The notes beneath the pieces are model-generated. The model made no database searches. It was not told the DNA's origin and saw only the letters and a list, made by a program, of their open reading frames with translations. The position numbers and the translations under genes were made by a program. Shown here one piece after another: positions 7,686-26,541 of a DNA stretch of 64,000 nucleotides. How positions within the stretch are numbered: position 1 is the stretch's first letter; the number at the start of each line of letters is the position of its first letter. Source of the DNA: Bacteroidota bacterium (GTDB lineage: Bacteria > Bacteroidota > Bacteroidia > 2-12-FULL-35-15); the NCBI GenBank assembly GCA_947504725.1, contig CANNHN010000004.1:135203-199202 (forward strand), read 5' to 3'.

Positions 7686-7701
7686 TAAAATATGTTCAGA
7701 A

Positions 7702-9234: not shown

Positions 9235-9318
9235 TTTGTTTGTTTTAGTTTGTTGTAATAATATGCGTGTTCGTAATAAAACTATGTTTTTGCTATAAAA
9301 TTGTATAAATGATTGTTT

Positions 9319-10469: not shown

Positions 10470-10477
10470 TAAATTTG
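10470..10477 (+). promoter_or_regulatory. Candidate Bacteroidota -7 promoter element (TAAATTTG, consensus TAnnTTTG) upstream of porU
   Basis: Motif match lying 21 bp upstream of the porU ATG. Confidence 0.3.
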
Positions 10478-10498
10478 AAATCTAATCAACCATATCGT

Positions 10499-13400
10499 AT
10501 GCGAATTATACTTGCCTTGTTGTTTATATTAGTTGTTGAAATTTCCGCATTTGGTCAAGCCAAATCTATTGGAAAACTAATTCCAACTAAGTATGCTATT
10601 TCTTGGCAACAGCCTGGTTCTGTTAGGCCATCAGAAAATGAGACCCAACGATTTTTGAGCTTTTCGGGTGCTCAATATCAATTTGAAGATGCTTTTTTGC
10701 CTCGTTATTTCGAAAAAATACCACTTACAAACAATGATTTAAGCTTCGAAACAACTATTATTAACCCTCTTTTTGAAGCTCTTTCTGATGTTGAAACTGC
10801 TATAATTAAAGATCCAGCACTTATTTCTACTGAAATAGTGGTAAAATCGGTTGTTTCCATTGCAAAAAAGCAAAAATATGGTACGGTTTCTTTTATTCCT
10901 ATTCGAAAAAATAGATCTACTGGGAAACTTGAAAAACTGGTTGCTTTTGATCTTTCTGTAGTTCCTAATTCATCAAGAGTGCCAGCTCGTGCTGTTCATA
11001 CTTACGCTGCTAATTCTGTTCTTCAAAATGGTGATTGGTATAAAATAGGGTTGGCTCAAGATGGTGTGTATAAATTATCATTTTCTTTTCTTCAAAGCTT
11101 AGGAATAGATGTATCTACGTTAAATCCTCAAAATATTCGTATTTATGGGAACGGAGGCGGCATGCTTCCTGAATTAAATTCAACTCCTAGAAAGGATGAT
11201 TTGGTTGAAAATGCCATTTTTGTGCAAGGTGAAGGGGATGGCATTTTTGATGCAACAGATTATGTTTTGTTTTATGGAAAAGGACCTCAGAATTGGAATT
11301 ACAATGCAAGTGCTTGTCCGAAATTTACTCATGAATTAAATCTTTATTCTGATTCTGCATATTATTTTATTAATGTTGATTTGGGTGCAGGTAAGCGAAT
11401 TTTAAATCAAGCTTCGTCCGTTTCTGCGGCAACGAATATCGTAAACACATTTGATGATTATAATTTTCATGAAACTAATAATGTGAATTTTATTAAGTCT
11501 GGTAGACAATGGTATGGTGAGTTTTTTGACAATATAGCAACATATAATTTTTCATTTAGTTTTCCAAACATAGACATGTCGGTACCAACAAGTGTTGCTG
11601 CTAGTATTGCTTCACGTTCTTTATCAACTGCCGCAAGTTATTCCATAACAAGTCAAACAGGAAGTACAAGTATTTCAATTGGAGCAACACCTGGCGATGC
11701 TTATAGTGATTATGCAATTATTGGAACAGGTTGTTTTTCCTTTAATCCGAATAACGCGAATGTTGGTGTTACAGTCACAAAATTAACTTCGAGTGCGCAA
11801 GCTTGGTTGGATTATATAACAGTGAATGTTAGACGACAGTTAACAATGTCGGGCGACCAAATGATTTTTAGAGATGTTCAATCTGTAGGCTTAGGAAATA
11901 TTGCTCAATACTCAGTTTCAAGTTTTTTGCCAATTCAAATATGGGATATTACAGAACCAACAAGTGTTTTTGCTCAATCAACTTCCCCAATTGGTTCAAC
12001 TTATCAGTTTACACTTCCGTCCGATACTTTAAAACAATTTATTGCTCATACTGGATTAAGTTATTTAACTGCAAAATTTTCCGAAAAAGTTTCGAATCAA
12101 AATTTGCATGCACTTTCTGATAAAGACTACATTATTATTTCTCATCCTGATTTTTATTCTGATGCTATTCAGTTAGCTACATTTCACGAAAACACTGATT
12201 CGCTTTCATCGATAGTTATAACTCCTCAGCAGATTTACAATGAATTTTCTTCTGGAGCTCAGGATATTAGTGCGCTAAGAGATTTTGTAAAGATGTTTTA
12301 CGATAAAGCTGCTATCGCGTCTGAATTGCCGCAATATTTATTGCTTTATGGCGATGGATCTTATGACAATAGAAGGAGATCAAGTAGCAATACGAATTTT
12401 ATTCCTACATACCAATCCTTTAATTCAACAGTTCTTACTCAGTCATATGTTTCAGATGATTTTTATGGGTTGTTAGATGATTCTGAAGGAACATGGGCTG
12501 GAAGTGCAGATGCTATTGATATTGGGATTGGTCGTTTGTCTGTAAAAAACACTGCTGAGTCAAATGCTGTTTTAAGTAAAATATTTAATTATACAAAAAC
12601 GGGTTTAGTGCCAAATACATCCAATAATGGTTGTTCAAATAATGTATCCAATACTCCGTTTGGCGATTGGAGAAATACTGTTTGTTTTATTGGTGATGAT
12701 GAAGATGGCGGCTTGCACCAATCTGATGCAAATAAATTAGCGACTATGGTAGACACTGCAGCAGACGATTACAATGTAGATAAAATTTATTTAGACGCCT
12801 ATCCACAAGAATCTACACCAGGAGGAAATCGTTATCCCACTGTAGCTGAAGCAATAAACAAAAGGATTGAGAAAGGTTGTTTGATTTTGAATTACACTGG
12901 GCACGGTGGAGAAGTTGGTTTGGCACACGAAAGAGTTATAGATGTTTCTCAAATTAATAATTGGAAAAACTTTAATAATCTACCCTTGCTTTTTACTGCT
13001 ACTTGTGAGTTTAGCAGATTTGATGATCCAGAAAGAACATCAGCTGGTGAGTATGCTCTTATAAATCCTGAAGGTGGAGCAATTGCTCTATTCACAACTG
13101 TTCGATTGGTATTTGCTTCAGGAAATTTTTATTTGAATCGTGATTTTTACGAACGAGCTTTTCTTCCAATTGCTGGTAAAATGCCACGGTTAGGTGATTT
13201 GTTTGCGTATATCAAAAACGAGCCCGGTGGGAATTCGGTAAACAGTAGAAATTTCACATTGCTTGGCGACCCAGCGTTGACATTGGCGTATCCAAAATTT
13301 GATGTCTCAACAGATACCGTAAATGCAATTCCAGTTTCTGTATCAAGTTCAGATACTTTGAAAGCGCTTTCATTGGTAACAATCAGTGGGTTTGTAAGAA

Positions 13401-14386
13401 ACACTAGTGGGTCGGTTATTAATACATACAACGGAGTTGTTTATCCGACAGTTTTTGATAAGTCTCAAAATATTACAACTCTTTCTAATGATGGAACTTT
13501 ATCAAGCCCTCCATTTACATTCGGAGTGCAAAAAAATATTTTATACAAAGGAAAAGCAAGTGTAACAAATGGAGCCTTCAAATTTTCTTTTGTTGTACCA
13601 AAAGATATTGCTTATGCCTTTGGAATAGGAAGAATAAGTTATTATGCAGAAAACGGAACAGAAGATGCAAATGGATATTATGAAAAAGTAATTATTGGTG
13701 GCTCAAATGATTCAGCTGCAATTGATAATGCAGGACCTAATGTTGATTTGTTTTTAAATGATGCAAAATTTGTTTATGGAGGATTAACGGATGAAACACC
13801 TGATTTGTTTGCAATTCTGAAGGATGATAATGGTGTAAATACTGTTGGAAATGGAATTGGACATGATATTACAGCAGTTCTTGATGGAAATACAGAAAGT
13901 TCGGTTGTATTAAACGATTATTATCAAGCCGATTTAAATAGTTATAAAAGCGGAACAATCCGTTACCCTTATTCTGAATTGAGTGAAGGGAAACATACTT
14001 TGAGTTTAAAAGTGTGGGATGTTTATAATAACTCGAGTCAATCGTATACTGAGTTTATTGTTGCCCGTTCTGCTGAATTAGCTTTGAGTCATGTATTGAA
14101 TTATCCAAATCCATTTACTACAAAAACTCAATTTTATTTTGAGCAAAATCAATGCTGTCAAGTATTGGATGTTTCTGTTCAGATCTTTACAGTTTCAGGT
14201 AAATTGGTAAAAAGTATTGACCAGTTTGTACAAACAGAAGGTTTTCGTTCAGACCCGATTGATTGGGATGGCCGAGATGATTTTGGAGATAGAATTGGAA
14301 AAGGTGTTTATATTTATAGAATAAAAGTGAAGACAAGTGAAGGGGCAGTAGCCGAAAAATTCGAAAAGCTTGTTATTTTAAATTAA
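10499..14386 (+). CDS. porU: T9SS C-terminal signal peptidase PorU (peptidase C25/gingipain-like)
   Basis: Approximately 1295 aa with a signal peptide. A gingipain-like His/Cys dyad is visible (NYTGHGGEVG ... LFTATCEFSRFDD). It has a Por-type C-terminal domain and is followed by porV. I chose the ATG at 10499 over the TTG at 10475. Confidence 0.75.
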   Translation: MRIILALLFILVVEISAFGQAKSIGKLIPTKYAISWQQPGSVRPSENETQRFLSFSGAQYQFEDAFLPRYFEKIPLTNNDLSFETTIINPLFEALSDVETAIIKDPALISTEIVVKSVVSIAKKQKYGTVSFIPIRKNRSTGKLEKLVAFDLSVVPNSSRVPARAVHTYAANSVLQNGDWYKIGLAQDGVYKLSFSFLQSLGIDVSTLNPQNIRIYGNGGGMLPELNSTPRKDDLVENAIFVQGEGDGIFDATDYVLFYGKGPQNWNYNASACPKFTHELNLYSDSAYYFINVDLGAGKRILNQASSVSAATNIVNTFDDYNFHETNNVNFIKSGRQWYGEFFDNIATYNFSFSFPNIDMSVPTSVAASIASRSLSTAASYSITSQTGSTSISIGATPGDAYSDYAIIGTGCFSFNPNNANVGVTVTKLTSSAQAWLDYITVNVRRQLTMSGDQMIFRDVQSVGLGNIAQYSVSSFLPIQIWDITEPTSVFAQSTSPIGSTYQFTLPSDTLKQFIAHTGLSYLTAKFSEKVSNQNLHALSDKDYIIISHPDFYSDAIQLATFHENTDSLSSIVITPQQIYNEFSSGAQDISALRDFVKMFYDKAAIASELPQYLLLYGDGSYDNRRRSSSNTNFIPTYQSFNSTVLTQSYVSDDFYGLLDDSEGTWAGSADAIDIGIGRLSVKNTAESNAVLSKIFNYTKTGLVPNTSNNGCSNNVSNTPFGDWRNTVCFIGDDEDGGLHQSDANKLATMVDTAADDYNVDKIYLDAYPQESTPGGNRYPTVAEAINKRIEKGCLILNYTGHGGEVGLAHERVIDVSQINNWKNFNNLPLLFTATCEFSRFDDPERTSAGEYALINPEGGAIALFTTVRLVFASGNFYLNRDFYERAFLPIAGKMPRLGDLFAYIKNEPGGNSVNSRNFTLLGDPALTLAYPKFDVSTDTVNAIPVSVSSSDTLKALSLVTISGFVRNTSGSVINTYNGVVYPTVFDKSQNITTLSNDGTLSSPPFTFGVQKNILYKGKASVTNGAFKFSFVVPKDIAYAFGIGRISYYAENGTEDANGYYEKVIIGGSNDSAAIDNAGPNVDLFLNDAKFVYGGLTDETPDLFAILKDDNGVNTVGNGIGHDITAVLDGNTESSVVLNDYYQADLNSYKSGTIRYPYSELSEGKHTLSLKVWDVYNNSSQSYTEFIVARSAELALSHVLNYPNPFTTKTQFYFEQNQCCQVLDVSVQIFTVSGKLVKSIDQFVQTEGFRSDPIDWDGRDDFGDRIGKGVYIYRIKVKTSEGAVAEKFEKLVILN

Positions 14387-14418
14387 TTTGTACATTAGCA
14401 ATCCTAAATAAAAATTGA

Positions 14419-15693
14419 ATGATAGATATTAGAGCATACAGCAAAAAAATATTTTTATTTGCTACCGCTATTATAGTTGTAGAGAGCGTTAAATCCCAAT
14501 CAAGTCAAAGTCAACGTGCTGAAGAACTTCAGTTAAATACGATAACTACAGCCGTTCCGTTTTTGCTTATTACACCCGACTCAAGAGCAGGTGGAATGGG
14601 AGATGCTGGCGTTGCGTCTTTAAACGATGTGAATGCTGTTCATTGGAATGCATCAAAATTAGGCTTTACAACAAAAAAAATGGGCTTTGGTGTTTCTTAT
14701 ACGCCATGGTTAAGAGCGTTGGTGCCAGATATTAATTTAGCATACATCACTGGTTTTTATAAGATGAAGAAGAAAGGAACTATTGCAGGTTCACTTCGTT
14801 ATTTTTCTTTAGGTGATATCACTTTCACAGATGCAAATGGGCAAACTACTGGACAATTTCGTCCAAATGAATTTGCACTTGATGTAGCTTATGGAACAAA
14901 GTTGGCAGATAATTTTGCAGTTGGTTTAGCGGTTCGATACATCAACTCAAATTTAACTGGAAATGCACTTGTTCAAAGTTCACAAACTCGTCCAGGTCGT
15001 GCAGTTGGCGTTGATCTTTCTGCATTATACAAAAAAGAGAAAGTGAAACTTGCAGATAAAAAAGCAATTGTTGCTTTTGGAATTAATATTTCAAATATTG
15101 GAAATAAAATGTCATACTCAGATAGAGGTGATAAAAATAGCGATGATTTTATTCCAATTAATTTGCGTTTAGGTGGATCGTTAAATGTGAATTTGGATGA
15201 TTATAATTCAATTTCAGTTTTAGCAGATATCAATAAATTATTAGTTCCAACTCCTCCCACTTATAAATTTAAAGTTGATGCAAATGGAGTAACTACAGGA
15301 GAAATAGACGTAGATGCGGATGGGAATCCAATAATTGAAAAAGGAAAAGATCCTAACCGCGGAGTAGCAGAAGGAATGTTTGGTTCGTTTACGGATGCTC
15401 CAGGTGGTGGAAAGGAAGAGTTAAGAGAACTTAACTATTCGCTTGGTTTGGAATATTGGTACAATCATTTGTTTGCTGTTCGTGCAGGATATTTTTATGA
15501 GCATCCAACAAAAGGGAATCGTCAATTTTTTACAATTGGTGCGGGAGTTAAGTACAATGTTTTTGGGTTAGATTTTGCATATTTGATTCCAACTCAACAA
15601 CGTAATCCTTTAGAAAACACATTGCGTTTTACTCTTACATTTGACTTTGATGCATTCAAAGATCAAAACAAAGAAGAAGCAAAAACAGAATAA
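14419..15693 (+). CDS. porV: T9SS outer-membrane shuttle protein PorV (LptO), FadL-like beta-barrel
   Basis: 424-aa signal-peptide OMP immediately downstream of porU, which is the conserved synteny. It shows the alternating beta-strand pattern of a barrel. Confidence 0.65.
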   Translation: MIDIRAYSKKIFLFATAIIVVESVKSQSSQSQRAEELQLNTITTAVPFLLITPDSRAGGMGDAGVASLNDVNAVHWNASKLGFTTKKMGFGVSYTPWLRALVPDINLAYITGFYKMKKKGTIAGSLRYFSLGDITFTDANGQTTGQFRPNEFALDVAYGTKLADNFAVGLAVRYINSNLTGNALVQSSQTRPGRAVGVDLSALYKKEKVKLADKKAIVAFGINISNIGNKMSYSDRGDKNSDDFIPINLRLGGSLNVNLDDYNSISVLADINKLLVPTPPTYKFKVDANGVTTGEIDVDADGNPIIEKGKDPNRGVAEGMFGSFTDAPGGGKEELRELNYSLGLEYWYNHLFAVRAGYFYEHPTKGNRQFFTIGAGVKYNVFGLDFAYLIPTQQRNPLENTLRFTLTFDFDAFKDQNKEEAKTE

Positions 15694-15836: not shown

Positions 15837-16313
15837 ATGAAAATAAGAGTAGGATTTGGATTTGATGTTCATCAATTGAAAGAAGGAAATGATCTCTGGT
15901 TGGGCGGAATTAAATTGACTCATAGCAAAGGAGCTGTTGGTCATTCGGATGCGGATGTTTTGATTCACGCTATTTGTGATGCATTGTTAGGTGCGGCAGG
16001 TATGCGAGATATTGGATTTCATTTTCCTGATACGTCTTCGGAATTTAAAGGAATTGATAGTAAGATATTATTAGAAAGAGTGAATCAACTTTTGCAAAAG
16101 GAAGGGTATTCCATAAATAATATTGATTGTACATTGGTATTGGAGCTACCAAAGATAAATCCTCACATTGATGAAATGAAAAAAACGGTGGCATCAATTT
16201 TAAATGTAGAGGTGAATGATATTGGAATAAAAGCCACCACGAATGAGAAGCTTGGTTATGTTGGCAGAGAAGAAGGCGTTTGCGCTTATGCAGTAGCGCT
16301 TATTCAAAAATAA
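15837..16313 (+). CDS. ispF: 2-C-methyl-D-erythritol 2,4-cyclodiphosphate synthase
   Basis: MKIRVGFGFDVH...HSDADV, the IspF signature. 158 aa. Confidence 0.9.
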   Translation: MKIRVGFGFDVHQLKEGNDLWLGGIKLTHSKGAVGHSDADVLIHAICDALLGAAGMRDIGFHFPDTSSEFKGIDSKILLERVNQLLQKEGYSINNIDCTLVLELPKINPHIDEMKKTVASILNVEVNDIGIKATTNEKLGYVGREEGVCAYAVALIQK

Positions 16314-16324
16314 AAATTTTTCAA

Positions 16325-17011
16325 TTATAGTGAGATGGTATATTCTAATCCTAGGATATATAAATTTTGTGGAGCGGAAAGATTCCATTCTCTTTGTATT
16401 AAATAATAAACCCCAAAAGTGTTTCTTTCGCTTTTTTTGTAATCTAATCCGACAATGTATCTGCCTCGATGCCATAAGTTATTTACGTCAACTGAACGCG
16501 GATTGTTGATTTGGTATCGTAATTCGCAAGCAATATAGGGTTTTACAGGTTTGTCTAAATCGTATTTTATAGTTAACTTACTTCTGGTGTACCATTCAGG
16601 AATTGCTCCTAATTCACTTGAGTAAATATTTCTGTATTCTCCTTGAAGTCTTTGACGGAAGGCGAAGGAAAGTTGGCCAGCTTTTTTCTTTAAAAGAACA
16701 TCCAACATTACTCGGTGACGAAAACTAATAGCATCGTCCTCAATGAATTTTTCGATGCAACGATAAGACAATGAAATTTTCATGAAATCAGTAGGCTTAA
16801 ATGAAGCTCCTAAATCCGTATAAAATAAATTGCTTTGCGAATAATTTTCTCTCACACGATATTCTTCTGTAATAAACAAGCTGAATTTTTGATTTAATGC
16901 TTTCTCTACATTAAAAGTGCACCATAAACCAGCGTCATCATTGGCTTGTGCGAATGATTTGGACGTTAAGCCAATGGCGATTATAAAAAGCAGTGCAATT
17001 TTCTTTATCAT
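16325..17011 (-). CDS. DUF2490-like outer-membrane beta-barrel protein
   Basis: Signal peptide (..SFAQA) and a barrel-like alternating pattern, 228 aa. Last gene of the co-directional cluster. Confidence 0.45.
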   Translation of the reverse strand: MIKKIALLFIIAIGLTSKSFAQANDDAGLWCTFNVEKALNQKFSLFITEEYRVRENYSQSNLFYTDLGASFKPTDFMKISLSYRCIEKFIEDDAISFRHRVMLDVLLKKKAGQLSFAFRQRLQGEYRNIYSSELGAIPEWYTRSKLTIKYDLDKPVKPYIACELRYQINNPRSVDVNNLWHRGRYIVGLDYKKSERNTFGVYYLIQREWNLSAPQNLYILGLEYTISL

Positions 17012-17017
17012 AAAAAA

Positions 17018-17644
17018 TTATTTTGTTACGTTGTAATAAACACGAATTAATGCTGTGTCCTTCAGGAAATCAATTTTCCCAATGGAAATACGATTAATTT
17101 TGATACCCATTCTGTTTTCGAGATCGGCTAACAACTCTGCTCGTAGTTCGGGTTTAATCATCTCAATGTTTTCGTATTGAATGTTTTGAGAAATCTCCTT
17201 TTTCATAAAAACTGAAGTTTCCAAGGCAAAAGTGAAAATGATAATAATAAGGTTGATGAATGAAATCTCAATCCAGTTTCCTTTGCTTAGTGCTGTAATT
17301 AAGCCCATGGCAATTACTAAAAAGAGATAAGTCATGTCTTTTGTAGAGATGCCTTCCGTTCTATAGCGAAGCATAGAAAAAACAGCAAATAAACCAAATG
17401 CAGCCCCCATGCTCATGTCCGATTTGTTCAAAATGAACGTGATTAAAAATATAATAAGGTTGAAAATAAAGAGTGTGAAAAAATTTTCACGGTTTTTATA
17501 GACAGGGAAATAGATAAATCGAATTAGAATAAATACAGAAACTAGATTGATTGCTAATCGAATAAAAAACTTTTGACCCAGTTTTTCAAAAAGTGTAAAT
17601 CCTGTATTAACAGCTTCTTCAGTTAACTCTTGTAGTAGTACCAT
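17018..17644 (-). CDS. DUF4956-like polytopic inner-membrane protein
   Basis: 208 aa with about 4-6 TM helices. Its start overlaps the VTC gene stop by 26 bp. Confidence 0.45.
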   Translation of the reverse strand: MVLLQELTEEAVNTGFTLFEKLGQKFFIRLAINLVSVFILIRFIYFPVYKNRENFFTLFIFNLIIFLITFILNKSDMSMGAAFGLFAVFSMLRYRTEGISTKDMTYLFLVIAMGLITALSKGNWIEISFINLIIIIFTFALETSVFMKKEISQNIQYENIEMIKPELRAELLADLENRMGIKINRISIGKIDFLKDTALIRVYYNVTK

Positions 17645-18386
17645 ACAATGCTTTTTTTATTAAAATTAATTTAGGTTTAAAATTATTGTGCTTAATCTTT
17701 TCATATAAATTTATAATTCCGAAACAATATTTACTTATTGCACCTTGTCGGATATGATATTTTTTCATTAATTTCAAAAAAGGAGAAGGAACTGCTTTGT
17801 CTTGCTTTACTTCGGCAATTACAATTTTTTCAATCGTTTTATTTTGATCTTCGTTCTTAAAAGTTAAATTCAAATCGATCGTTACTCTTTCGGGTGAATG
17901 TTTGTTTACAAACGTAATTCTAGAATAATTCACCCAAATTTTAGCCTCTAAATTGTCTGATTTTAAGGGAGTTTTATGTGTTAAAAGTTCTTCCGCTTTT
18001 TCTTTTATTGAACCATCAATTTCTTTTTGCTTTACTCTGTCTTTTATTGTCCGTCCTTTGTTTGTTTTAAACTTTACTTCAAAAAAATTCAAATCAGATT
18101 CAACATATTTTCTGAATCGTACTTTAAATCTGCTTGGTTTTCCCCTGTGATGTGAATGATATAAATCAAACCCTTTTGTGTCAAAATATAACGACTCGTA
18201 TCTACTTATTTTGTTGCCATTTACATCTAGTATTTTGTAATCGTTTTTTATCTGATTTAATAATTCAGGTAAAAGCTCAAACTTAAAAACAAATTTAGTG
18301 TCAGTTCTATCCATCAACTTCACACTGTCCATTTCTTTTAAAGTAATGGGCTCAAATTCATTCAATATGCGATTTACTTCGTCCAC
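17619..18386 (-). CDS. VTC-domain protein (polyphosphate polymerase / CYTH-like triphosphate-tunnel domain)
   Basis: Soluble 255-aa protein, or 237 aa if the ATG at 18332 is used instead of the GTG at 18386. It has charged beta-strand motifs typical of the VTC/CYTH tunnel (..YFDT.....Y..H..G...R.K.R.R.Y..). The family assignment is from recollection. Confidence 0.55.
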   Translation of the reverse strand: MDEVNRILNEFEPITLKEMDSVKLMDRTDTKFVFKFELLPELLNQIKNDYKILDVNGNKISRYESLYFDTKGFDLYHSHHRGKPSRFKVRFRKYVESDLNFFEVKFKTNKGRTIKDRVKQKEIDGSIKEKAEELLTHKTPLKSDNLEAKIWVNYSRITFVNKHSPERVTIDLNLTFKNEDQNKTIEKIVIAEVKQDKAVPSPFLKLMKKYHIRQGAISKYCFGIINLYEKIKHNNFKPKLILIKKALYGTTTRVN

Positions 18387-18388
18387 GT

Positions 18389-18958
18389 TTAGTATTCGTA
18401 TGTATACTTCTTTATAGAAATGACCGTACCGTTTCCATCGGTTGTTTTCTTCTCAGTTTTTAAACCATTTTTATCATAAGCATAAATTGATTTTTTTATC
18501 ATTTTACCTTTTTCGTCCATCGTTATTTCGTAAGATCTATCACCTTTTGCATTGTATCCATGTTGCGTTTTTTCTAGAAGTTTCCCGTTCGCATCAGATG
18601 TAGTTTCAAATGTTTTGTCTTTGTTGGAATTGTACTCAGTCGTTATCTTTTTCTTCAAATTTCCTTTTTCATCAAAAATAAGTTCTTCTGTAATATCATT
18701 ATTTTTGTTGTAGGTCTGAGCTTCTTTTTTCTTGATAGAACCATCTTTGTTGTACTCAATTAGTTCTATAACATTCCCGTTTTTGTCAAATTTTTGAGAC
18801 ATGTCTGTCCGTGTTTTTTCTTTTCCTTCAATTGATTCTGTTACAACAGTAACACTTGATTTTATACCGAGTTTTTTTACTTCTTTTTTGCTTTGTGAAA
18901 ATGAAGTAAGTGTAAGTATAGAAAAGATGAATGAAAGGAATATTAACTGAGTTTTCAT
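18389..18958 (-). CDS. Secreted repeat protein (approximately 22-aa repeats Y.KNG....E...D.NG; MORN/YwqK-like?)
   Basis: Signal peptide followed by internally repetitive Lys/Asn-rich repeats. I chose the ATG at 18958 over the one at 18997 to avoid overlap. Confidence 0.45.
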   Translation of the reverse strand: MKTQLIFLSFIFSILTLTSFSQSKKEVKKLGIKSSVTVVTESIEGKEKTRTDMSQKFDKNGNVIELIEYNKDGSIKKKEAQTYNKNNDITEELIFDEKGNLKKKITTEYNSNKDKTFETTSDANGKLLEKTQHGYNAKGDRSYEITMDEKGKMIKKSIYAYDKNGLKTEKKTTDGNGTVISIKKYTYEY

Positions 18959-18969
18959 TTTATATTTAT

Positions 18970-19386
18970 TTATTTTACGATTTCGATTGTTTCGCATTCA
19001 ACCGTTTGTTTTTTCTTTGTGATCTCAACATCTTTAATAACGGCCAGCCTGTTAACAGTTGTTAAGGATGTACCACTTGAATAAGAATATATCGTATAGT
19101 TGCCAGCGCGCAAGTATTTAAATTCATAAATTCCATCAAAATTTGCTTGTACCTTATCGCCATAAGTAGCATCATCACCGTAAATGATGTAGACATCTTC
19201 ATAGGCACCAGCAAATTCTCCTCCTAGTGAAGCAGGGATTGCTATGCCAAGGTCGTTGTATCTTTTTACCCAAATTTTTCCAGTAATTGTTGCCTTTCCT
19301 CCTTCACCTTCTGATTTTTTACATGAAGAAATTGATAAGAGACTTACTGATATAAGTGATAGAATAATTATTTTGAATATTTTCAT
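18970..19386 (-). CDS. Small lipoprotein, tandem paralog 1
   Basis: 138 aa with lipobox ..SSCKK. Paralogous to the adjacent 141-aa gene (shared GKIWV..YN.LG, GEFAGA.EDVYIIYGDD..YG.KV, DGIFEFKYLR.G.Y). Confidence 0.5.
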   Translation of the reverse strand: MKIFKIIILSLISVSLLSISSCKKSEGEGGKATITGKIWVKRYNDLGIAIPASLGGEFAGAYEDVYIIYGDDATYGDKVQANFDGIYEFKYLRAGNYTIYSYSSGTSLTTVNRLAVIKDVEITKKKQTVECETIEIVK

Positions 19387-19405
19387 CTTTCTGAAATGAG
19401 ATTTA

Positions 19406-19831
19406 TTATTTATAAATAGTTAGAGTGCCTGCGTCAACGGTTTCTTTTTTGTTAGCTATGTTTACTGAAACATCTACTGTTTTTATTCCTGAGCCATAAA
19501 AATAGGACGCACGTGTAGTGTCTTTAGACTTTACATAAACTTTGTAATCGCCTTTTCGTAAATATTTAAATTCAAAAATCCCATCAGGTCCTGATTTTAC
19601 TTTGTTACCATAGCTTATATCGTCACCATAAATGATATAAACATCTTCATCTGCTCCTGCAAATTCACCTTTTAAAAAATAGGGAGGACTAGATATACTT
19701 CCTAATGTGTTGTAGTTTTCAACCCATATTTTTCCTTGAATAGTTGCTTGTCCGCCTTCTCCTTCTGGTTTGTTGCACGATGCAATTATCAGTGCTACAG
19801 TAACAGCTAATAATAAGATTTTTTTACTCAT
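19406..19831 (-). CDS. Small lipoprotein, tandem paralog 2
   Basis: 141 aa with lipobox ..ASCNK. About 50% identical to paralog 1. Confidence 0.5.
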   Translation of the reverse strand: MSKKILLLAVTVALIIASCNKPEGEGGQATIQGKIWVENYNTLGSISSPPYFLKGEFAGADEDVYIIYGDDISYGNKVKSGPDGIFEFKYLRKGDYKVYVKSKDTTRASYFYGSGIKTVDVSVNIANKKETVDAGTLTIYK

Positions 19832-19935
19832 AAGTGATTCTGTATTATTGTGTTTAATTAAATGTTTAGCAATATTAAAATAATGTTCTGTATTAAACCT
19901 GTAGTTTGTTAAGTTAATATTAACAATACGCCCCT

Positions 19936-22900
19936 TTAGAGTGTTTTTGTTTTAATTAGTTTAATTGTTTTTGTAAATTCTTTTGTTTTTAATTCAATAA
20001 AGTACATTCCAGACGCCATAGCCAATCCTTTTGTGTCAAAATTAAACGAATAACTTCCCTCTGCATGAAAAGTATCAGGAGAGACAATGGTTGCTACATC
20101 TTGACCAATTATTGAATACAATTTTACGCTTACTTGCATACTTTCTGGCAACTGAAAATTGATAGTAATTAAATCGTTGAAAGGATTTGGATATACATCT
20201 AAGCCCAGTTCAAGAACATCAAAATGTGCTCTGAAAACATCATTTGTATCGATGTTTAAAGTGATACTTTCGAGTTCAGTTTTTAAAATAGTACTATTTG
20301 CTTCCCAATATTTGAACTCGTATCCAGGATTTGCAATGGCTGTGATGGATACAGGAACACCATCAAAGTAGACGCCTGTCCACGGTAGCGACTCAGGAGT
20401 AATGGTGCTGATTTTAATTTTACCAGCTCCAGCAGGCATTACATCTAATGTCACATCCACTTGTTTTGTTAATCCAAATTGACTTTGTATCTGGTCGCGT
20501 GCAAATCCAATTCTATTTGTCGCAAATAGCATCATGGTGTCAATTTCACTTTCCCATTCAGTTACATTTGAAGAAGGACCAATTAAACCACTCCAAAAAC
20601 TTCCTCCCCAGCGAGTAAAATGTCTTGGCATTTCTGGTAACATTTCATCATGCATTGCATCTGCATTTTGTTGCATAGTGCTTGGTAAAAAAATGGTGTT
20701 CATTAAATCAGCATATCGATCAACAAAATAATTTTTAAATTCTGAATTTGCTAAAAGCCCAGACAACATTGTTGAATGGGGATTTACTGTAACGGGGTTA
20801 ATAGCGATATCTAAAAAGTCGGTGCTTACTGCTCCGCCCCAAGCAGTAGCAAATCCAAGTGATAAGTCGGTATCCCATAAAACATAACGCCATTTTCCAA
20901 CTGGATTATTTGGTCGCCAAAATTTGATATTGTTGGTGTAACTTCCAAGCCAATCGATATTTAATATATACGTTTCCGTTATAAAATAGTCGCAAAAATT
21001 TTCTACATCCAACAGACTTTTTGCTGTATTGTAATTTGCAGCAATAGACATATCGTTTGAGCCAATCCAATTTGACATGCTCAAAAATGCGGTATTACTT
21101 CCTTCAATTATACTTCCATCAAATTGTAAAAAATCAATTTTGTCGGCAGGAATACCGCTGTTGTTTTCTATATAATCTTTGTCTTGTTTTTCACGTAATT
21201 CATAAACGCCCCAATAATCACCGTTGATGAAAAGCACACATGGTCTGCCGTCCATAATTTCAAGACTCGTACTTTTTTGAGCATTTTTTTGATTGAAACG
21301 GTCACGCATATGCGCTTTGTTCCAATCTGAACCAGCATTTCGAATGTTGAATGATTTGTATTGCGTGACAAATGGTTTGTCCGGAAACAAAGGGTAATCA
21401 ATCGTTTCGCCTTTGTAGTTTTCTTTTGTTTTTACAGCAAATCCTCTTTGTGGCCAAGCTTTTGAATAATTTCCTTGGATAGCGATAGAAGATGGAGTTT
21501 CAAATCCTAAATTTCCATTTGGGTCGAAATACTCTATGTTCGCAGGTCGTTCCCAGCCTTGCCAAAAATTCGCACCTTGAAAAGGAACATTTACTGTATC
21601 AGCATTTGGGCCCATTACATAAATTCCATAATTGTAATCAAACAAATTATAAGGATCGCTGGTTAAGGAAACAACAGGTAGTTCAATGTTTTCGTTTATG
21701 AAATAAGTATTGGTAATAATTTCGCTTGGCAATTGTAATGGGTCCGTTGAATACGTACGTGCTCTTACAGCCATAGTGGAATCAATAGTAATTGGAGTTA
21801 AGTACAATGCAGATGTTTGATCGGGATCTTTTCCATCAAGTGTATATCTTACCAATCCTGTTGGGGAAGACATACTTAATGTTTGTGTTGAAGAATAAAA
21901 TCCAGCACTTAAAGAAAAAGAAGGTTTACTTAGATAATCAGTGTAGAATGCGGAAGTGTTATTCGTTGTATCTGGAGTTGGAGAATCAAAATAATACCAA
22001 CTGCTAGCTCCATTAGGTCTTCTACCAAATGTGTTATTCAATTGCATTCCTCCAATTATTTTTTGGTCAACGATATTTCCTGAAGCATCTTTTAAAATTA
22101 GTTCTTGTCCAGTGCTATTTAAATTAAAGCTGGTATGTAAATTAACAATAGCTGCAAACGGATAATACGTAACTGCGGTATCGTTTACTCCAATTAAAAA
22201 ATAGGGGATCATAGAAAGATCGTCCGTTCCACTAGAGAAATTGTGTACCTGAACACTAAATACATTTAATCCTGGTTTGATAGCGGCATCAACAACTTCG
22301 GGTGAAACAAAATAAGCTCCTGAAAAATTTCCAGTTGAATAAACACTAGCTTCATGCTCATCATAAGCCCAAGTATTAAAGTTTGGTCGGTCACCATAAA
22401 CGCCAACATTCGCACGAGCTATTTCAACACCATTTAAATAAGCAACAAAGCCATCATCATAATCTAAAAACAATAAAGCTGTTGGGATCTTACTAGTATC
22501 AGCAATATTAAAACTAGTTCGCATAAAAACTGAAGTTATTGGAGGAGTGATAGTGCTATCATCTCCATCGCCATAACCAATTCCTCCAATTCCTGTTAAC
22601 CAAGATGCATCGTTAAAAGTTATATCAGGCCAAGTAGCTGGCGGGTTTGTTGTTCCTAAAAAATATTTCCATGGAAGCTGAGGATAAACAGGTACTTCCC
22701 AATGGTCGAAGTATGCATTTCGGTTTTTCTTAGAACAAAAAACGGTTAAGTAATCGTTTGCTTTTATATTTATGCTTGGAAAAGTCCAAGATTTACTTTT
22801 TCCATTTTCGATAGAAGAGATAGTATATCCACTCATATTGATTGGTGAAGCTGTAGGATTATAAAATTCAATCCAATCTTCTTGGTCGTTATCTTCATCT

Positions 22901-23019
22901 AAATAACTAGAAACACTCGCGTTGGAAACTTCATTAATGACAATTTGTGCATTTGACTGCAATGCACATGCAAAAATTAAAGAGAAAATACAGTAGAGTA
23001 GGCGTATATTAATGCACAT
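19936..23019 (-). CDS. CotH kinase-family protein with N-terminal lamin-tail domain and T9SS C-terminal sorting domain
   Basis: 1027 aa. An LTD-like N-terminus (VINEVS..DWIEFYNPT..MSGYTI) is followed by a CotH core (..FINGDYWGVYELREKQDKDYIE..). The last approximately 80 aa (VYPNPFNDLITINF...GMYFIELKT) match a T9SS CTD. Confidence 0.65.
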   Translation of the reverse strand: MCINIRLLYCIFSLIFACALQSNAQIVINEVSNASVSSYLDEDNDQEDWIEFYNPTASPINMSGYTISSIENGKSKSWTFPSINIKANDYLTVFCSKKNRNAYFDHWEVPVYPQLPWKYFLGTTNPPATWPDITFNDASWLTGIGGIGYGDGDDSTITPPITSVFMRTSFNIADTSKIPTALLFLDYDDGFVAYLNGVEIARANVGVYGDRPNFNTWAYDEHEASVYSTGNFSGAYFVSPEVVDAAIKPGLNVFSVQVHNFSSGTDDLSMIPYFLIGVNDTAVTYYPFAAIVNLHTSFNLNSTGQELILKDASGNIVDQKIIGGMQLNNTFGRRPNGASSWYYFDSPTPDTTNNTSAFYTDYLSKPSFSLSAGFYSSTQTLSMSSPTGLVRYTLDGKDPDQTSALYLTPITIDSTMAVRARTYSTDPLQLPSEIITNTYFINENIELPVVSLTSDPYNLFDYNYGIYVMGPNADTVNVPFQGANFWQGWERPANIEYFDPNGNLGFETPSSIAIQGNYSKAWPQRGFAVKTKENYKGETIDYPLFPDKPFVTQYKSFNIRNAGSDWNKAHMRDRFNQKNAQKSTSLEIMDGRPCVLFINGDYWGVYELREKQDKDYIENNSGIPADKIDFLQFDGSIIEGSNTAFLSMSNWIGSNDMSIAANYNTAKSLLDVENFCDYFITETYILNIDWLGSYTNNIKFWRPNNPVGKWRYVLWDTDLSLGFATAWGGAVSTDFLDIAINPVTVNPHSTMLSGLLANSEFKNYFVDRYADLMNTIFLPSTMQQNADAMHDEMLPEMPRHFTRWGGSFWSGLIGPSSNVTEWESEIDTMMLFATNRIGFARDQIQSQFGLTKQVDVTLDVMPAGAGKIKISTITPESLPWTGVYFDGVPVSITAIANPGYEFKYWEANSTILKTELESITLNIDTNDVFRAHFDVLELGLDVYPNPFNDLITINFQLPESMQVSVKLYSIIGQDVATIVSPDTFHAEGSYSFNFDTKGLAMASGMYFIELKTKEFTKTIKLIKTKTL

Positions 23020-23088
23020 GTTAATTTAATGTAAATTTAACAAAAAATCGGCATCAATACAAGCATTTTTTGGCTTTTATTGATCGAA

Positions 23089-23105
23089 ATTCACCTGATG
23101 TGAAT
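23089..23105. promoter_or_regulatory. Palindrome attcac-N5-gtgaat in the promoter region of the 1027-aa CotH gene
   Basis: Perfect 6-bp inverted repeat, 70-85 bp upstream of the CotH start and just downstream of the LytTR regulator gene. Confidence 0.25.
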
Positions 23106-23155
23106 ATACTTTGACGAACAAAAAGCCGTATAGTTTAAATGATAAAAAGCGGCAC

Positions 23156-23851
23156 TTATTTTTTAAAAATGGCATTAAAATCTGCTTCATAACTGCTTCC
23201 AATAGGAATTTCTTTCCCTGCAATCGAAATCATTTTTTTTCTAACGTTTTCTATTTTACTAAATGGAATAATAAATGAGCGATGCACACGAATGAATTCT
23301 GTGGAAGATAATTTTTCCATAATGCCTTTCATGGTCATTCGTGTTACTATTGGTTTTGGGTTATTTAAAAGATGAATTTTTAAATAATCATCCAATCCTT
23401 CAATTAAAGCGATATCATTTATGGCAATTTTAATCAGACTATAATCTGCTCTCACGAATAAATATTGTTCCATGTTTTTTTCTAAAGTTCCAGCAGAACC
23501 AAAATTATCTTTTGCTTTATTTACTGCTTGTAAAAAACGTTCATAGGTATAGGGTTTTAGTAAATAATCAATGGCGTTTAAATTAAATCCTTCCACAGCA
23601 AATTCGCTATAAGCAGTTGTGAAAATAACCATTGTGTTTTGTTCAATCGATTTGTAAAGTTCAATGCCTGACATGGAAGGCATATTGATGTCCAAAAACA
23701 ACAAGTCGGTTGGGAATTTACTAAGATGTTTCAATGCTTCATTCGGCATTGAAAATGTTTTTTGTAGTTCAATTAATCCAGTTTTCTCACAAAAATTTTC
23801 AATAATTTTCAATGCTGGTAATTCATCGTCAATGGCAATTGCTTTTATCAT
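23156..23851 (-). CDS. LytTR-family two-component response regulator
   Basis: Receiver domain (..LFLDINMP..) plus a C-terminal LytTR DNA-binding domain. 231 aa. Confidence 0.8.
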   Translation of the reverse strand: MIKAIAIDDELPALKIIENFCEKTGLIELQKTFSMPNEALKHLSKFPTDLLFLDINMPSMSGIELYKSIEQNTMVIFTTAYSEFAVEGFNLNAIDYLLKPYTYERFLQAVNKAKDNFGSAGTLEKNMEQYLFVRADYSLIKIAINDIALIEGLDDYLKIHLLNNPKPIVTRMTMKGIMEKLSSTEFIRVHRSFIIPFSKIENVRKKMISIAGKEIPIGSSYEADFNAIFKK

Positions 23852-24849
23852 TTAAGGTCTATTGTTAGTGAAACTGAATATTCTTTTTCAGTATTGTTAA
23901 TTTGTAATTTGTGTTTTCCGGGATAAATCATTTGCAATCTGTTTTTTGTATTTTGTACTCCAACACCACTTTCGGATTCTGCACTGCGTTGAACAAAAAC
24001 TTTATTGTTTTTTACAAATAAAAATAATTGATTTTCCGTTGTGTCAATCTTAATATTAATTATTGAATTGTCTTCAGCATTTACACCATGTTTGTAAGCA
24101 TTTTCAATAAATGGAATAAGTATTAATGGTGCAATTGTTTTGTTTTTATGGTCTCCAGTAATGGTGCATTCAAATTGGATAAAACTTCCAAAACGAATTT
24201 GTTGTAATTCAATAAAGTTCTGAATGTATTCAATTTCTTTTTCTAAACTAACATAATCACTTGAACTTTCGCTTAAAACATAACGCATCATGTTTGACAA
24301 TTTAACAATTGAAGAAGCGACATTGTCGGATTGGACAATTGCCAAGGAGTAGATGCTGTTTAATGTGTTAAATAGAAAGTGAGGGTTGATTTGAGCTTTT
24401 AAATAAGCCAATTCGGCATCAAGTTTTTCTTTTTCAGATTGTTTCAAGCGAACGTTAATTTTAAGCATCAGTGAGAAAACTAAAACAATTAAAAATAAAA
24501 AGAGACGAATTTTAATTTCTCGTATAAAAAATGTATCAAAAGTATTTGAATTAAAATTAGTAGAAGGGATGAGTACAAGTGGTAAAAAGAAGATTAGTGC
24601 AAAATAGAAAAACACTACAAAGTAAAAAATGTAATATTTTTTTTCAAAATATAGTCTTGGAATTAAAACGAAATAACTTAAATAAAAAAAAGGAATCAAA
24701 ATAATTGAAAATAGTAAATCGCGCTGAAACCCTTTGGCGTGAATAAAATCAAAATCAAGAGAAAGGTCAGGCGAAAAAATAATAGGAAGTGCTAAGAAAA
24801 TAGCGCAGCCTAATAAGTGAATGACAAGTTGATTGGTTTTTTTATTCAT
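23848..24849 (-). CDS. LytS/YehU-type sensor histidine kinase (membrane)
   Basis: N-terminal TM helices and the His_kinase motif LKAQINPHFLFNTLNSI. It overlaps the RR gene start by 4 bp. Confidence 0.75.
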   Translation of the reverse strand: MNKKTNQLVIHLLGCAIFLALPIIFSPDLSLDFDFIHAKGFQRDLLFSIILIPFFYLSYFVLIPRLYFEKKYYIFYFVVFFYFALIFFLPLVLIPSTNFNSNTFDTFFIREIKIRLFLFLIVLVFSLMLKINVRLKQSEKEKLDAELAYLKAQINPHFLFNTLNSIYSLAIVQSDNVASSIVKLSNMMRYVLSESSSDYVSLEKEIEYIQNFIELQQIRFGSFIQFECTITGDHKNKTIAPLILIPFIENAYKHGVNAEDNSIINIKIDTTENQLFLFVKNNKVFVQRSAESESGVGVQNTKNRLQMIYPGKHKLQINNTEKEYSVSLTIDLK

Positions 24850-24892
24850 TTCTACAAATGTAAATCAATTTAGAAATGAATTCAATCCTTTT

Positions 24893-26392
24893 CTACTTTA
24901 TTTTTTGAAATTTTGAATACCCGTTCTCATTCACTTTGATCAAATACATTCCGGAAGGAAATTCTGAAATATCAATCTTTTCGGAAGTATTCTGAGATGT
25001 TAGTTTTGAAATTTCTTGTCCTAATGAATTGTAAATTCGAATTGCATTTTCAGTTTGAGTTAAATTGAAGTTAATTGTGATAAAGTCGTTCGCAGGATTT
25101 GGATAAACTATGAATGGATTGTTTTCCGAACTATTTTCATTTACTCCAACATAACAACCATTTAAAAATAATTCTGCTATCAATGCATTTCTGCGGTCGG
25201 TAATAAATGTTTTTATTCCCATTATCATTCCTACGTCTGATGTTAAATTTGTTTCGAAGTCTGCACTCGAATAAAATTTTATGCCATCGGCATAAACATC
25301 CGTACGGATTGCATTTGCTAATGAATCAATTTTTGAATCCAATGCAGCATTACTAAAATCGTATTGAAGCCATTGACAAAATACATCCGTTAATGTGCTT
25401 TTGTAAGATGGTACAGCAAGCATTTTTTGAACTAATGGTCGGTTTGTTGAAGGTGTAGAAACGTGATAAGCGCTTAAGTTTTTAAGCTGTGTGTTCGTTA
25501 ATCCCATATTGAAATTCCCAAAAGATTCATTGACATCCCAACTCACCCATTCAAATTTATTTGCAAGTGTATCGTGATAAATAAAATAATTGTGACCACT
25601 TCCAATATATGAATCCAGATTGACAAATAAATTCATGGCTGCCCAATGTCTAATGAAACTACTAGTGTTTAAAGCCACTTCCAAAGAGTCTTGAAAATTG
25701 CTTGCGCTATTATTAATGTTGTCAATTAAGTCGACTAAATCGGTCCAATCATTTGCTGTTTCATTTGTATGCAATTCGTATTTTGCATAATAGGAAGATG
25801 CGGCAGTACCATACCATCTTAAATCTCCAGATGGATCACCTTTAAACATGTTCCCTTGTTTGTTTCCAAAACGATCATCTAGAAAAGTTTTGTTTGCTTC
25901 TTCAACAAACATGTATAATCCCCAATAAATTCCATTTAAGTAGACACGAGTGTATGAGCATCGTGGAGCCGCTAATCCATGTTCATTATAAAAATCTAAC
26001 GCCAATTTTTCACGCATAAAAGACGGGTCTTTAAAACCGTTATTCAAATTGAATTTTTTTATTCCATCAAGTTCACTAGTTGATCCATATTCATTTAAAT
26101 CTATTTTAAATGGTTTTTTTGTACTTGGGTTAGAGTAAGAAGAATTTCCTTTAAACTTTATTCCCACGTTTGGATAAATCACACCGTCTATAGTTACATC
26201 TCCTTTTAAATATAAATCCAATGGTTTATTTGCCACGAGAGAATCCCAGTAATTGGTTTGTGGAAATGTCATATATATATCATGAACAATAGCTTGTCCG
26301 AAAAAAATATCGCCTTCTGTTTGAGCTTTGGTTTTAGATGAGAGTAAAGAAATTGAGATTAAAAAAAGTGGGAGTAGCTTTTTTAGTTTCAT
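24893..26392 (-). CDS. CotH kinase-family protein with T9SS C-terminal sorting domain
   Basis: 499 aa with a signal peptide. The CotH core aligns by eye to B. subtilis CotH (HDIYMTF.., GIKFKGNSS..KKPFKIDLN, KKFNLNNGFKDPSFMREKLALDFY, YLNGIYWGLYMFVEEANKTFL). A T9SS CTD is present (VYPNPANDFITINF..). Confidence 0.7.
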   Translation of the reverse strand: MKLKKLLPLFLISISLLSSKTKAQTEGDIFFGQAIVHDIYMTFPQTNYWDSLVANKPLDLYLKGDVTIDGVIYPNVGIKFKGNSSYSNPSTKKPFKIDLNEYGSTSELDGIKKFNLNNGFKDPSFMREKLALDFYNEHGLAAPRCSYTRVYLNGIYWGLYMFVEEANKTFLDDRFGNKQGNMFKGDPSGDLRWYGTAASSYYAKYELHTNETANDWTDLVDLIDNINNSASNFQDSLEVALNTSSFIRHWAAMNLFVNLDSYIGSGHNYFIYHDTLANKFEWVSWDVNESFGNFNMGLTNTQLKNLSAYHVSTPSTNRPLVQKMLAVPSYKSTLTDVFCQWLQYDFSNAALDSKIDSLANAIRTDVYADGIKFYSSADFETNLTSDVGMIMGIKTFITDRRNALIAELFLNGCYVGVNENSSENNPFIVYPNPANDFITINFNLTQTENAIRIYNSLGQEISKLTSQNTSEKIDISEFPSGMYLIKVNENGYSKFQKIK

Positions 26393-26516
26393 TGTGTAAA
26401 ATGTTAAGTTTAGATTATCAGACCATACAATATCAAGAAGGTTTAATGCAGTCTAATTTTTATCCATATCAAAAATAGGGCATTTGTTTTTGATTGTCAA
26501 GTTGACTGAAAACCAT

Positions 26517-26524
26517 TATCTTTG
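26517..26524 (+). promoter_or_regulatory. Candidate -7 promoter element TATCTTTG (TAnnTTTG) upstream of cdd
   Basis: Motif match lying 17 bp upstream of the ATG. Confidence 0.3.
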
Positions 26525-26541
26525 GGCTAAATAGCTTTAAA

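Follow-up and report, generated by a model that had tools for sequence, protein, structure and literature searches.

A VTC, DUF4956 and DUF2490 gene set with CotH kinase-family neighbours in a Bacteroidota bacterium: a possible split polyphosphate synthase/translocase

Polyphosphate in bacteria is attributed to PPK1 and PPK2, and in eukaryotes the VTC complex (Vtc4 with Vtc1/2/3) acts as a vacuolar polyphosphate polymerase/translocase. The present analysis concerns a run of ten minus-strand genes (g1 to g10, positions 16325-26392) in a stretch of 64,000 nucleotides from a Bacteroidota bacterium (assembly GCA_947504725.1, contig CANNHN010000004.1, positions 135,203 to 199,202 of the forward strand), hereafter the window, in which a gene for a VTC-domain protein is followed by genes of the DUF4956 and DUF2490 families and preceded by genes for lipoproteins, a repeat protein and secreted CotH kinase-family proteins. 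Comparison with related loci revealed that the core of this set comprises the lipoprotein(s), the YD-like repeat protein, VTC, DUF4956 and DUF2490, and that CotH is a frequent but dispensable neighbour. It is tentatively proposed, as a reading that falls somewhat short of probable, that the set may encode a bacterial VTC-like machine in split form, which would make and translocate polyphosphate with the help of partners in the periplasm and the outer membrane and whose function would be tied to that of CotH kinases at the surface.

Several members of this set have been reported side by side. Whitfield et al. described contiguous accessory genes for cotH, a 'polyphosphate polymerase', DUF4956 and DUF4832 downstream of Gram-positive pel operons (bioRxiv 10.1101/768473), the NELoc-2 locus of Clostridium perfringens harbors a VTC/'tubulin'/CotH gene group (PMC2879425), and in Bacteroides thetaiotaomicron DUF4956 adjoins DUF2490 at BT3498-99 (PMC10434189). 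DUF2490 has been listed as the putative porin family TC 1.B.81, without an established function (PMC4827864). A literature search on DUF4956, DUF2490, bacterial VTC, CotH with the type IX secretion system (T9SS) and BT3496-3500 returned only table entries and passing remarks and no functional study, in agreement with an earlier note on this DNA, whose model author was aware of no functional characterisation in Bacteroidota. The families and the CotH-VTC-DUF4956 adjacency are already known; no description was found of the diderm architecture, in which DUF2490, lipoproteins, a repeat protein, T9SS-exported CotH and a LytS/LytTR pair stand together.

Gene content of the ten-gene run

The ten open reading frames (ORFs) were recovered on the minus strand with coordinates identical to those of the earlier note, and Pfam matches were counted at the curated gathering thresholds. 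The genes are as follows, in the direction of transcription.

g1, 24893..26392, minus strand: secreted CotH kinase-family protein of 499 residues, CotH plus T9SS sorting domain; accessory module
g2, 23848..24849, minus strand: LytS-type membrane histidine kinase of 333 residues, His_kinase PF06580 at 2.9e-28; accessory module
g3, 23156..23851, minus strand: LytTR-family response regulator of 231 residues, Response_reg at 2.1e-19 and LytTR at 1e-15; accessory module
g4, 19936..23019, minus strand: secreted lamin-tail plus CotH protein of 1027 residues, with a lamin-tail domain (LTD), carbohydrate-binding-like modules, CotH and a T9SS sorting domain
g5, 19406..19831, minus strand: small lipoprotein A of 141 residues, lipobox LIIASC
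g6, 18970..19386, minus strand: small lipoprotein B of 138 residues, lipobox SISSC, paralogue of g5
g7, 18389..18958 (ORF to 18997), minus strand: YD/MORN-like repeat protein, periplasmic or secreted, with a signal peptide and a weak MORN_2 match
g8, 17619..18386, minus strand: cytoplasmic VTC-domain protein of 255 residues, Vtc4-like triphosphate-tunnel metalloenzyme
g9, 17018..17644, minus strand: DUF4956 inner-membrane protein of 208 residues, Pfam DUF4956 (PF16316), presumed partner of VTC
g10, 16325..17011, minus strand: putative outer-membrane beta-barrel of 228 residues, Pfam DUF2490 (PF10677)

Profile hidden Markov model (HMM) searches recovered each domain named in the earlier note above its Pfam gathering score. 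Its other observations on these products also stood: ten consecutive minus-strand genes with gaps of 136 bp or less, a LytS kinase (membrane-bound, with PF06580) beside a regulator with receiver and LytTR domains, two paralogous small lipoproteins with lipoboxes, T9SS sorting signals on both CotH proteins, and a soluble VTC protein, with no membrane segment, whose stop overlaps the DUF4956 gene by 26 bp. From their domains and signal peptides, the predicted products span the cytoplasm, the inner membrane, the periplasm, the outer membrane and the cell surface.

The Pfam CotH model (cut-off 23.8) matched g1 at 5.8e-64 (217.1 bits) and g4 at 5.1e-40 (138.4 bits), two proteins that share only 23% identity, and g1 aligned with the Bacillus cereus CotH of entry 5jd9 at an E-value of 3e-21. 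In g4, matches to LTD (2.5e-12), CHB_HEX_C_1/Fn3_assoc and Flg_new_2 were also found. Both proteins carry a signal peptide at the N-terminal end and a type-A T9SS sorting domain at the C-terminal end that was recognized by TIGR04183 and by Por_Secre_tail (6.6e-17 and 62 bits for g1, 3.4e-10 and 40.5 bits for g4), so that both should act outside the cell. The T9SS machinery is encoded in the same genome, with genes at 7702-15693 of the window for a GldJ-like FGE-sulfatase protein, porP/sprF, porU (1303 residues, Peptidase_C25) and porV, followed by ispF. Moreover, Bacillus subtilis CotH is inactive as the D228Q or the D251A mutant (PMC7821199), and these two residues correspond to the aspartates of the NFD and WD motifs in the B. 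cereus protein and to D260 (NLD) and D286 (WD) of g1. This aspartate pair was invariant in an alignment of g1, g4 and two homologues, and the catalytic aspartates were conserved in 46/46 and 47/47 sequences, among them 44 cluster-linked CotH ORFs. The catalytic residues are hence intact in both CotH proteins of the run; their loss had been named in the earlier note as a result that would refute its hypothesis.

The lipoproteins g5 and g6 are 52% identical (BLASTP 4e-39) and matched no Pfam family. A profile of their family gave a weak match to the beta-sandwiches of NOMO and of the pilus B-domain and a faint one to CarboxypepD_reg, and g5 is probably a single beta-sandwich domain of the transthyretin/CnaB-like type. 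The g7 family profile weakly matched the YD-repeat shell of Rhs proteins (E 0.0057). DUF2490 was recognized in g10 at 1.1e-21 (77.9 bits, cut-off 29.8), behind a signal peptide ending in SFAQ. In the kinase g2, a weak GHKL match and four to five N-terminal hydrophobic segments were also found.

Recurrence and layout of the gene set

The run is flanked by ispF and the T9SS genes on one side and by cdd and pyruvate dehydrogenase genes on the other. Three relatives whose VTC proteins are 69-75% identical to g8 (loci L001-L003; L numbers denote the loci compared) have both flanks of the window, with cdd and the pyruvate dehydrogenase genes on one side and ispF, porV and porU on the other. In these closest relatives, g4 heads a seven-gene block that has been kept, its orthologues occupying the same position in all three. 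L002 also has the small CotH gene and the LytS/LytTR pair, and L001 and L003 run from cdd straight to the large LTD-CotH gene. Since g1-g3 are missing from L001 and L003, they were regarded as an accessory module, and g4-g10 as the block kept in close relatives.

Because the flanks of the close relatives were syntenic too, a wider comparison was made. When a DUF4956 profile, built from an alignment of 15 sequences, was run against genomes sampled at one per species, at least 559 confirmed relatives were obtained, of which the best 80 were analysed; these belonged mostly to several orders of Bacteroidota, and two were from Gemmatimonas. ORFs were called in the loci and annotated by iterated HMMs seeded with the window proteins, and counts were taken on a well-covered set of 56 loci, in which the sequence extended 6 kb or more upstream and 1.5 kb or more downstream of DUF4956. 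VTC was found directly 5′ of DUF4956 in 54/56 loci (52 in the scripted search range, plus L067 and one more in a wider range), DUF2490 directly 3′ of it in 51/56, and the complete trio in 51/56. A repeat protein or lipoprotein accompanied them in 46/56 loci and both did so in 27/56; homologues of g5 lay near DUF4956 in 34, and homologues of g7 lay directly upstream of VTC in 39. CotH was present within −7 to +5 kb in 33/56, and 19 of these 33 had a lamin-tail region. In L012, L032 and L081 the set was kept with its gene order shuffled.

The ispF/porV flank was found in only 9/56 loci. In the remaining 47, the trio was nevertheless kept in 42 and CotH in 28, which indicates that the association is not inherited synteny. 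The same set, including the LytS/LytTR pair and two CotH genes, was present in another context in the cultured Dyadobacter jejuensis (GCA_003149085.1), where LytTR and LytS are divergent from a run of CotH, CotH, VTC, DUF4956 and DUF2490, and the link of the pair with CotH recurs across phyla (10.1101/768473). These findings speak against the explanation that the ten-gene run is a chance synteny of unrelated envelope genes placed on one strand beside the T9SS genes. In favour of such an explanation are the identical flanks of the close relatives, in which synteny is thus general, the lack of g1-g3 in two of the three, and promoter and terminator scans that were uninformative. Judged on both sides, chance synteny appears very improbable for the run and, from the comparison of gene orders, largely refuted for g4-g10. 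By the same comparison, the T9SS flank, shared by close relatives but rare elsewhere, probably reflects lineage synteny and not a functional link.

The view of the earlier note that the ten genes form one cluster therefore stood in part: g4-g10 are kept in close relatives and the gene set recurs in dozens of unrelated genome contexts, but g1-g3 are absent from L001 and L003, and no CotH was detected near the trio in 23/56 loci. Its belief that CotH-VTC-DUF4956 neighbourhoods recur in other bacteria was borne out by the related loci, by Deinococcus taeanensis and Dyadobacter jejuensis, and by the published pel operons (bioRxiv 10.1101/768473). A tblastn search with DUF4956 against annotated plasmids and chromids extended the picture, and the VTC-DUF4956 pair was found in at least five phyla; outside Bacteroidota it is adjacent in Gemmatimonadota, Deinococcota and Proteobacteria (both Alpha- and Gammaproteobacteria). 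CotH, VTC and DUF4956 follow each other in this order in Deinococcus taeanensis and in the two Gemmatimonas loci (L077, L082). A profile search for distant DUF4956 proteins again gave mostly Bacteroidota among the matches listed, so that the link in Firmicutes and Actinobacteria rests on the literature.

Some arrangements were observed besides these. In loci without CotH, the CotH position is often held by a T9SS-sorted protein of about 500-570 residues, with coordinates as follows.

L012, 6435-8135: T9SS-sorted repeat protein in the CotH position
L013, 6511-8181: T9SS-sorted repeat protein in the CotH position
L071, 6700-8355: T9SS-sorted repeat protein in the CotH position
L075, 6561-8252: T9SS-sorted repeat protein in the CotH position
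L064, 6655-8145: T9SS-sorted repeat protein in the CotH position

These proteins of about 550 residues contain around eight propeller-like repeats with the motif DxxGGAxxVWxDxRNGxxDIYAQ. They were considered as divergent CotH proteins and rejected as such, given the repeats and the absence of a CotH domain; they may take the place of CotH as the secreted partner of the VTC/DUF4956 module. In L066 (6715-11566), two convergent mirror-image copies of lipoprotein, VTC, DUF4956 and DUF2490 genes lie on one contig of a metagenome-assembled genome, which may be an assembly palindrome. On a Pseudoalteromonas chromid (L084, 7297-9675), DUF4956 is preceded by a small lamin-tail protein and then a truncated VTC ORF (7679-7993), which is probably a pseudogene, and is followed by an annotated porin; the lamin-tail link thus exists even without a CotH domain.

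The LytS/LytTR pairs that adjoin the cluster occupy at least five kinds of position. In the window and in L002 the pair lies between two CotH genes, and in L017/L020/L024 and L089 it is divergent from CotH. In L029 it is found upstream on the strand of the cluster, in L047 farther upstream on the other strand, and in L059 3′ of DUF2490. A LytTR regulator lay nearby on the opposite strand in L014 and L043, in the latter beside a larger histidine kinase, and OmpR-type regulators were present instead in L042 and L071. Bacteroidota are rich in LytTR systems, and the adjacency, at about one locus in six, is for this reason suggestive and not proven above chance.

With respect to the layout of the run, the largest intergenic gap is the 136 bp between g3 and g4. 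The earlier note had counted three overlapping junctions, of which two are secure, namely the 4-bp overlap of g2 and g3 and the 26-bp overlap of g8 and g9, where the g8 stop lies over the g9 start and which has a counterpart in L001-L003. The third, 28 bp between g6 and g7, hinges on an upstream ATG of g7; since g7 homologues have 188-190 residues, translation probably starts at M14 (18958), which leaves no overlap with g6 and two real overlaps in all. The upstream ATG lengthens the g7 ORF (18389-18997) by 13 residues, MRNNRNRKINKYK, and the signal peptide follows M14. Two intergenic regions may be relevant to transcription.

26393..26541, minus strand: promoter-like elements upstream of g1, consensus matches only
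23020..23155, minus strand: 136 bp between g3 and g4, where g4-g10 likely begin as a transcription unit of their own, by comparison with relatives

The first contains a −7 box of the Bacteroidota type, TAnnTTTG, 77 nt ahead of the g1 ATG, and a sigma-70-like site, TTGACA-17-TATTTT. The exact TAnnTTTG box was not found in the g3/g4 gap, that is, upstream of g4. Across the region, promoter-like sites were not enriched (46 observed, 50.8 expected in shuffles), a terminator scan was uninformative (7 observed, 5.4 in shuffles) and an Rfam scan matched no family. In L001 and L003, the g4 orthologue directly follows the divergent cdd, with g1-g3 absent, which implies a promoter of its own for g4 there; these comparative data suggest at least two transcription units in the window, g1-g3 and g4-g10. 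An ORF of 91 residues on the minus strand (16200-16475) overlaps the end of ispF and the start region of the DUF2490 gene and is most likely a spurious shadow ORF.

The VTC/DUF4956 pair and the readings of its function

The protein g8 matched the Pfam VTC model at 1.4e-31 (110.4 bits, cut-off 23) over profile positions 2-233 of 235, and it is a single-domain protein that lacks a signal peptide and any hydrophobic or membrane segment. It was modelled by AlphaFold2 (AF2; predicted local distance difference test, pLDDT, of 66) as a triphosphate-tunnel fold, a tunnel-shaped antiparallel beta structure, and the model showed 22% identity to Vtc4 versus 12% to YgiF. A single-sequence search of the Protein Data Bank with g8 gave no matches. 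A profile of 16 g8 sequences gave a weak alignment with Vtc4 (E 0.19, ending at residue 107), in which K31, R90, R92 and K105 of g8 correspond to K200, R264, R266 and K281 of Vtc4, numbered after 8i6v_E (7ytj_D has alanine at R264 and R266). These four residues are invariant across 16 homologues. In the C-terminal part of Vtc4, the active site includes E426, S457 and K458; g8 has an S218-K219-Y220 stretch that is invariant in the family and lies beyond the end of the profile alignment. The tunnel fold and the membership in the Vtc4 family are thus supported, and from structure alone polymerase and hydrolase are not separable for g8. Its C-terminal tail, KHNNFKPKL, is invariant, is modelled at low confidence and is a candidate docking motif.

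The neighbours of the pair in other phyla bear on this question. Nitratireductor has DUF4956, VTC, a PiT phosphate transporter and a phytase-like esterase; Aminobacter has DUF4956, VTC and a phytase-like esterase; Shinella has DUF4956 and VTC; and in Deinococcus sp. QL22, VTC and DUF4956 adjoin an HAD acid phosphatase and phnDCEE. The alphaproteobacterial loci show the reversed order, DUF4956 then VTC, and have an extracytoplasmic function (ECF) sigma/anti-sigma pair and an S8 peptidase nearby.

L087 7968-12008, L086 8031-10283 and L088 5635-11667: loci outside Bacteroidota with phosphate-related neighbours (Alphaproteobacteria/Deinococcus sp. QL22)

The transporter, esterase, phosphatase and phnDCEE neighbours point to phosphate chemistry. 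They would also suit a serious rival of the export reading, namely phosphate scavenging or import, in which surface CotH/LTD proteins and lipoproteins would capture extracellular polyphosphate or a phosphorylated polymer, DUF2490 and DUF4956 would import it and g8 would hydrolyse it, as a tri- or polyphosphatase and not a polymerase. Triphosphate-tunnel enzymes are mostly hydrolases or cyclases, g8 has a YgiF match, and the layout is like that of Bacteroidota utilisation loci, with a surface enzyme, lipoproteins, an outer-membrane channel and a cytoplasmic enzyme. However, g8 falls in the Vtc4 family and not in CYTH, as its VTC score and the two identities given above indicate, it keeps the equivalents of the four Vtc4 residues, and it is not obvious what a surface enzyme with a kinase fold would do in uptake. 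The phosphate-uptake neighbours do not discriminate between a synthase and scavenging, since VTC in yeast is under phosphate regulation as well. Weighing these points, the inward direction was judged unlikely, serious as it is.

DUF4956 was matched by g9 over the entire profile (positions 1-169 of 169; 2.1e-51, 174.4 bits), and an AF2 model (pLDDT 75) displayed five helices followed by a C-terminal beta-alpha-beta-beta domain. The motif FGLFA[VI]F..LRYRTE...[KR][DE]MTYLF is kept down to about 31% overall identity and was found in most of the 68 representatives in the alignment, whose identity to g9 is 31-59%; the best 120 homologues of g9 are 74-100% identical to it. At 50% identity, about 1,500 clusters of the family are counted in a set of 1.84 billion representatives. 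These alignments place g9 under strong constraint. Its three most positively charged loops (KNRE 50-53, RYRTEGISTKD 93-103 and KKE 148-150) and its C-terminal domain lie on the same side of the membrane, which by the positive-inside rule would be the cytoplasm, where g8 sits. Comparison of DUF4956 with the VTC channel detected no similarity, pore-like features or channel homology, and in a Pfam scan of 69 DUF4956 members at E-values up to 1, neither DUF202 nor any transporter family was repeatedly associated with them. Apparent DUF4956-DUF2490 and DUF4956-CotH fusions in metagenome gene calls (P0249, P0324, P0331, P0277) were rejected as Rosetta-stone evidence, since an internal signal peptide or lipobox at each junction makes them look like read-through gene calls; they still demonstrate gene adjacency.

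The lack of pore-like features would fit a further explanation, in which the VTC-DUF4956 product is membrane-associated and stays in the cytoplasm, as a polyphosphate granule or a small nucleotide/triphosphate signal, and the surface genes belong to a loosely coupled, co-regulated pathway, for instance one that modifies T9SS cargo or a surface polymer. Many loci do without CotH, and CotH, VTC and DUF4956 occur with pel operons in Gram-positives and with a chitin-synthase-like gene in C. perfringens, neighbours that suggest a link to surface-polymer biology. What tells against this explanation is the position of DUF2490 directly after DUF4956 in 51/56 loci and the presence of a repeat protein or lipoprotein in 46/56, even where the order is shuffled: if these periplasmic and outer-membrane parts shared no function across the envelope, it would be difficult to account for their being kept so closely. 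A product confined to the cytoplasm was therefore regarded as quite doubtful.

The split synthase/translocase reading would accommodate these parts in a single route, of which four elements are inferred: polymerase activity in g8, complex formation between VTC and DUF4956, transport in the outward direction, and a chemical connection with CotH. First, g8 would dock on the cytoplasmic face of DUF4956 and polymerise phosphate from a nucleoside triphosphate into polyphosphate, and the chain would cross the inner membrane, as it does into the vacuole with eukaryotic VTC. Second, g7 and the beta-sandwich lipoproteins g5 and g6 would handle the chain in the periplasm, and the DUF2490 barrel (g10) would carry it through the outer membrane. 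Finally, the T9SS-exported CotH kinases (g4, g1) would act in the same surface pathway, where the polymer may be used or modified by them, or a polymer-binding surface substrate may be their phosphorylation target, with the LytS/LytTR pair (g2, g3) providing local regulation.

Several observations weigh against this route. CotH was not detected near the trio in 23/56 loci, and in L039 and L043 nothing secreted is encoded next to the core. No DUF2490 was found in the loci from Gemmatimonas, Deinococcus and Alphaproteobacteria. The phosphate-uptake neighbours suit scavenging as well as they suit storage or export. The Vtc4 active site was covered by the profile alignment in its N-terminal half only, the AF2 models are of moderate confidence (pLDDT 75 for g9 and 66 for g8), and the literature search found no experimental data for any member of the cluster.

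The earlier note had supposed that the trio supplies a phosphoryl donor to the CotH kinases, and this donor-export idea is plausible. In its most specific form, a split VTC machine would thread polyphosphate via DUF4956 and DUF2490 to the surface, where it would be used or decorated by CotH kinases and might, for instance, serve them as a phosphoryl donor independent of ATP; this full chain of steps is improbable as a whole. If true, it would provide a new bacterial polyphosphate route separate from PPK1/PPK2 and would begin to explain where secreted bacterial kinases obtain their donor. More generally, a VTC-type polymerase that has a membrane partner of its own would add a membrane-coupled route distinct from PPK1 and PPK2, by which polyphosphate could end up outside the cytoplasm. 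A function would be assigned to DUF4956 and DUF2490, two families that are widespread, and there would be a concrete idea for the CotH kinases of non-sporulating bacteria. The gene set occurs in cultured Dyadobacter jejuensis, Flectobacillus and Emticicia, and DUF4956-DUF2490 in B. thetaiotaomicron, so that these proposals are directly open to experiment.

Comparison with known systems

The closest counterpart of g8 is the eukaryotic VTC complex, with which it shares the Pfam family PF09359. Like Vtc4, g8 has a modelled triphosphate-tunnel fold, the equivalents of K200, R264, R266 and K281, and a tie to a membrane component. Unlike the eukaryotic subunits, it has neither an SPX domain nor a fused three-helix membrane domain, and the membrane protein that accompanies it is encoded separately and belongs to the unrelated DUF4956 family, with five helices and an alpha/beta domain. 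Moreover, the bacterial set goes beyond eukaryotic VTC in having periplasmic proteins, an outer-membrane barrel and secreted kinases.

The accessory set of Gram-positive pel operons has the same cotH, VTC and DUF4956 families in contiguous genes, which are here represented by g4 through g8-g9 on one strand. In contrast, no pel genes, DUF4832 or glycosyltransferase were found here (the ten genes and ten flanking ORFs were scanned for pel and DUF4832), and the diderm version has DUF2490, lipoproteins, the repeat protein, T9SS export and LytS/LytTR, which the Gram-positive set lacks. With the Bacillus CotH kinase (5jd9/5jda), g1 and g4 have in common the CotH domain and both catalytic aspartates. 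However, the Bacillus protein belongs to the spore coat, whereas g1 and g4 occur outside any spore context and carry a signal peptide and a T9SS sorting domain, to which g4 adds a lamin-tail domain and carbohydrate-binding-like modules.

Finally, the synthase-dependent exopolymer systems (alginate, Pel, poly-N-acetylglucosamine (PNAG) and cellulose) present a similar layout, in which a polymerase of the cytoplasm or inner membrane, periplasmic accessory proteins and a dedicated outer-membrane barrel are encoded in one cluster. This likeness is an architectural analogy: the present locus has no glycosyltransferase and no homologous component, and its predicted polymer is polyphosphate.

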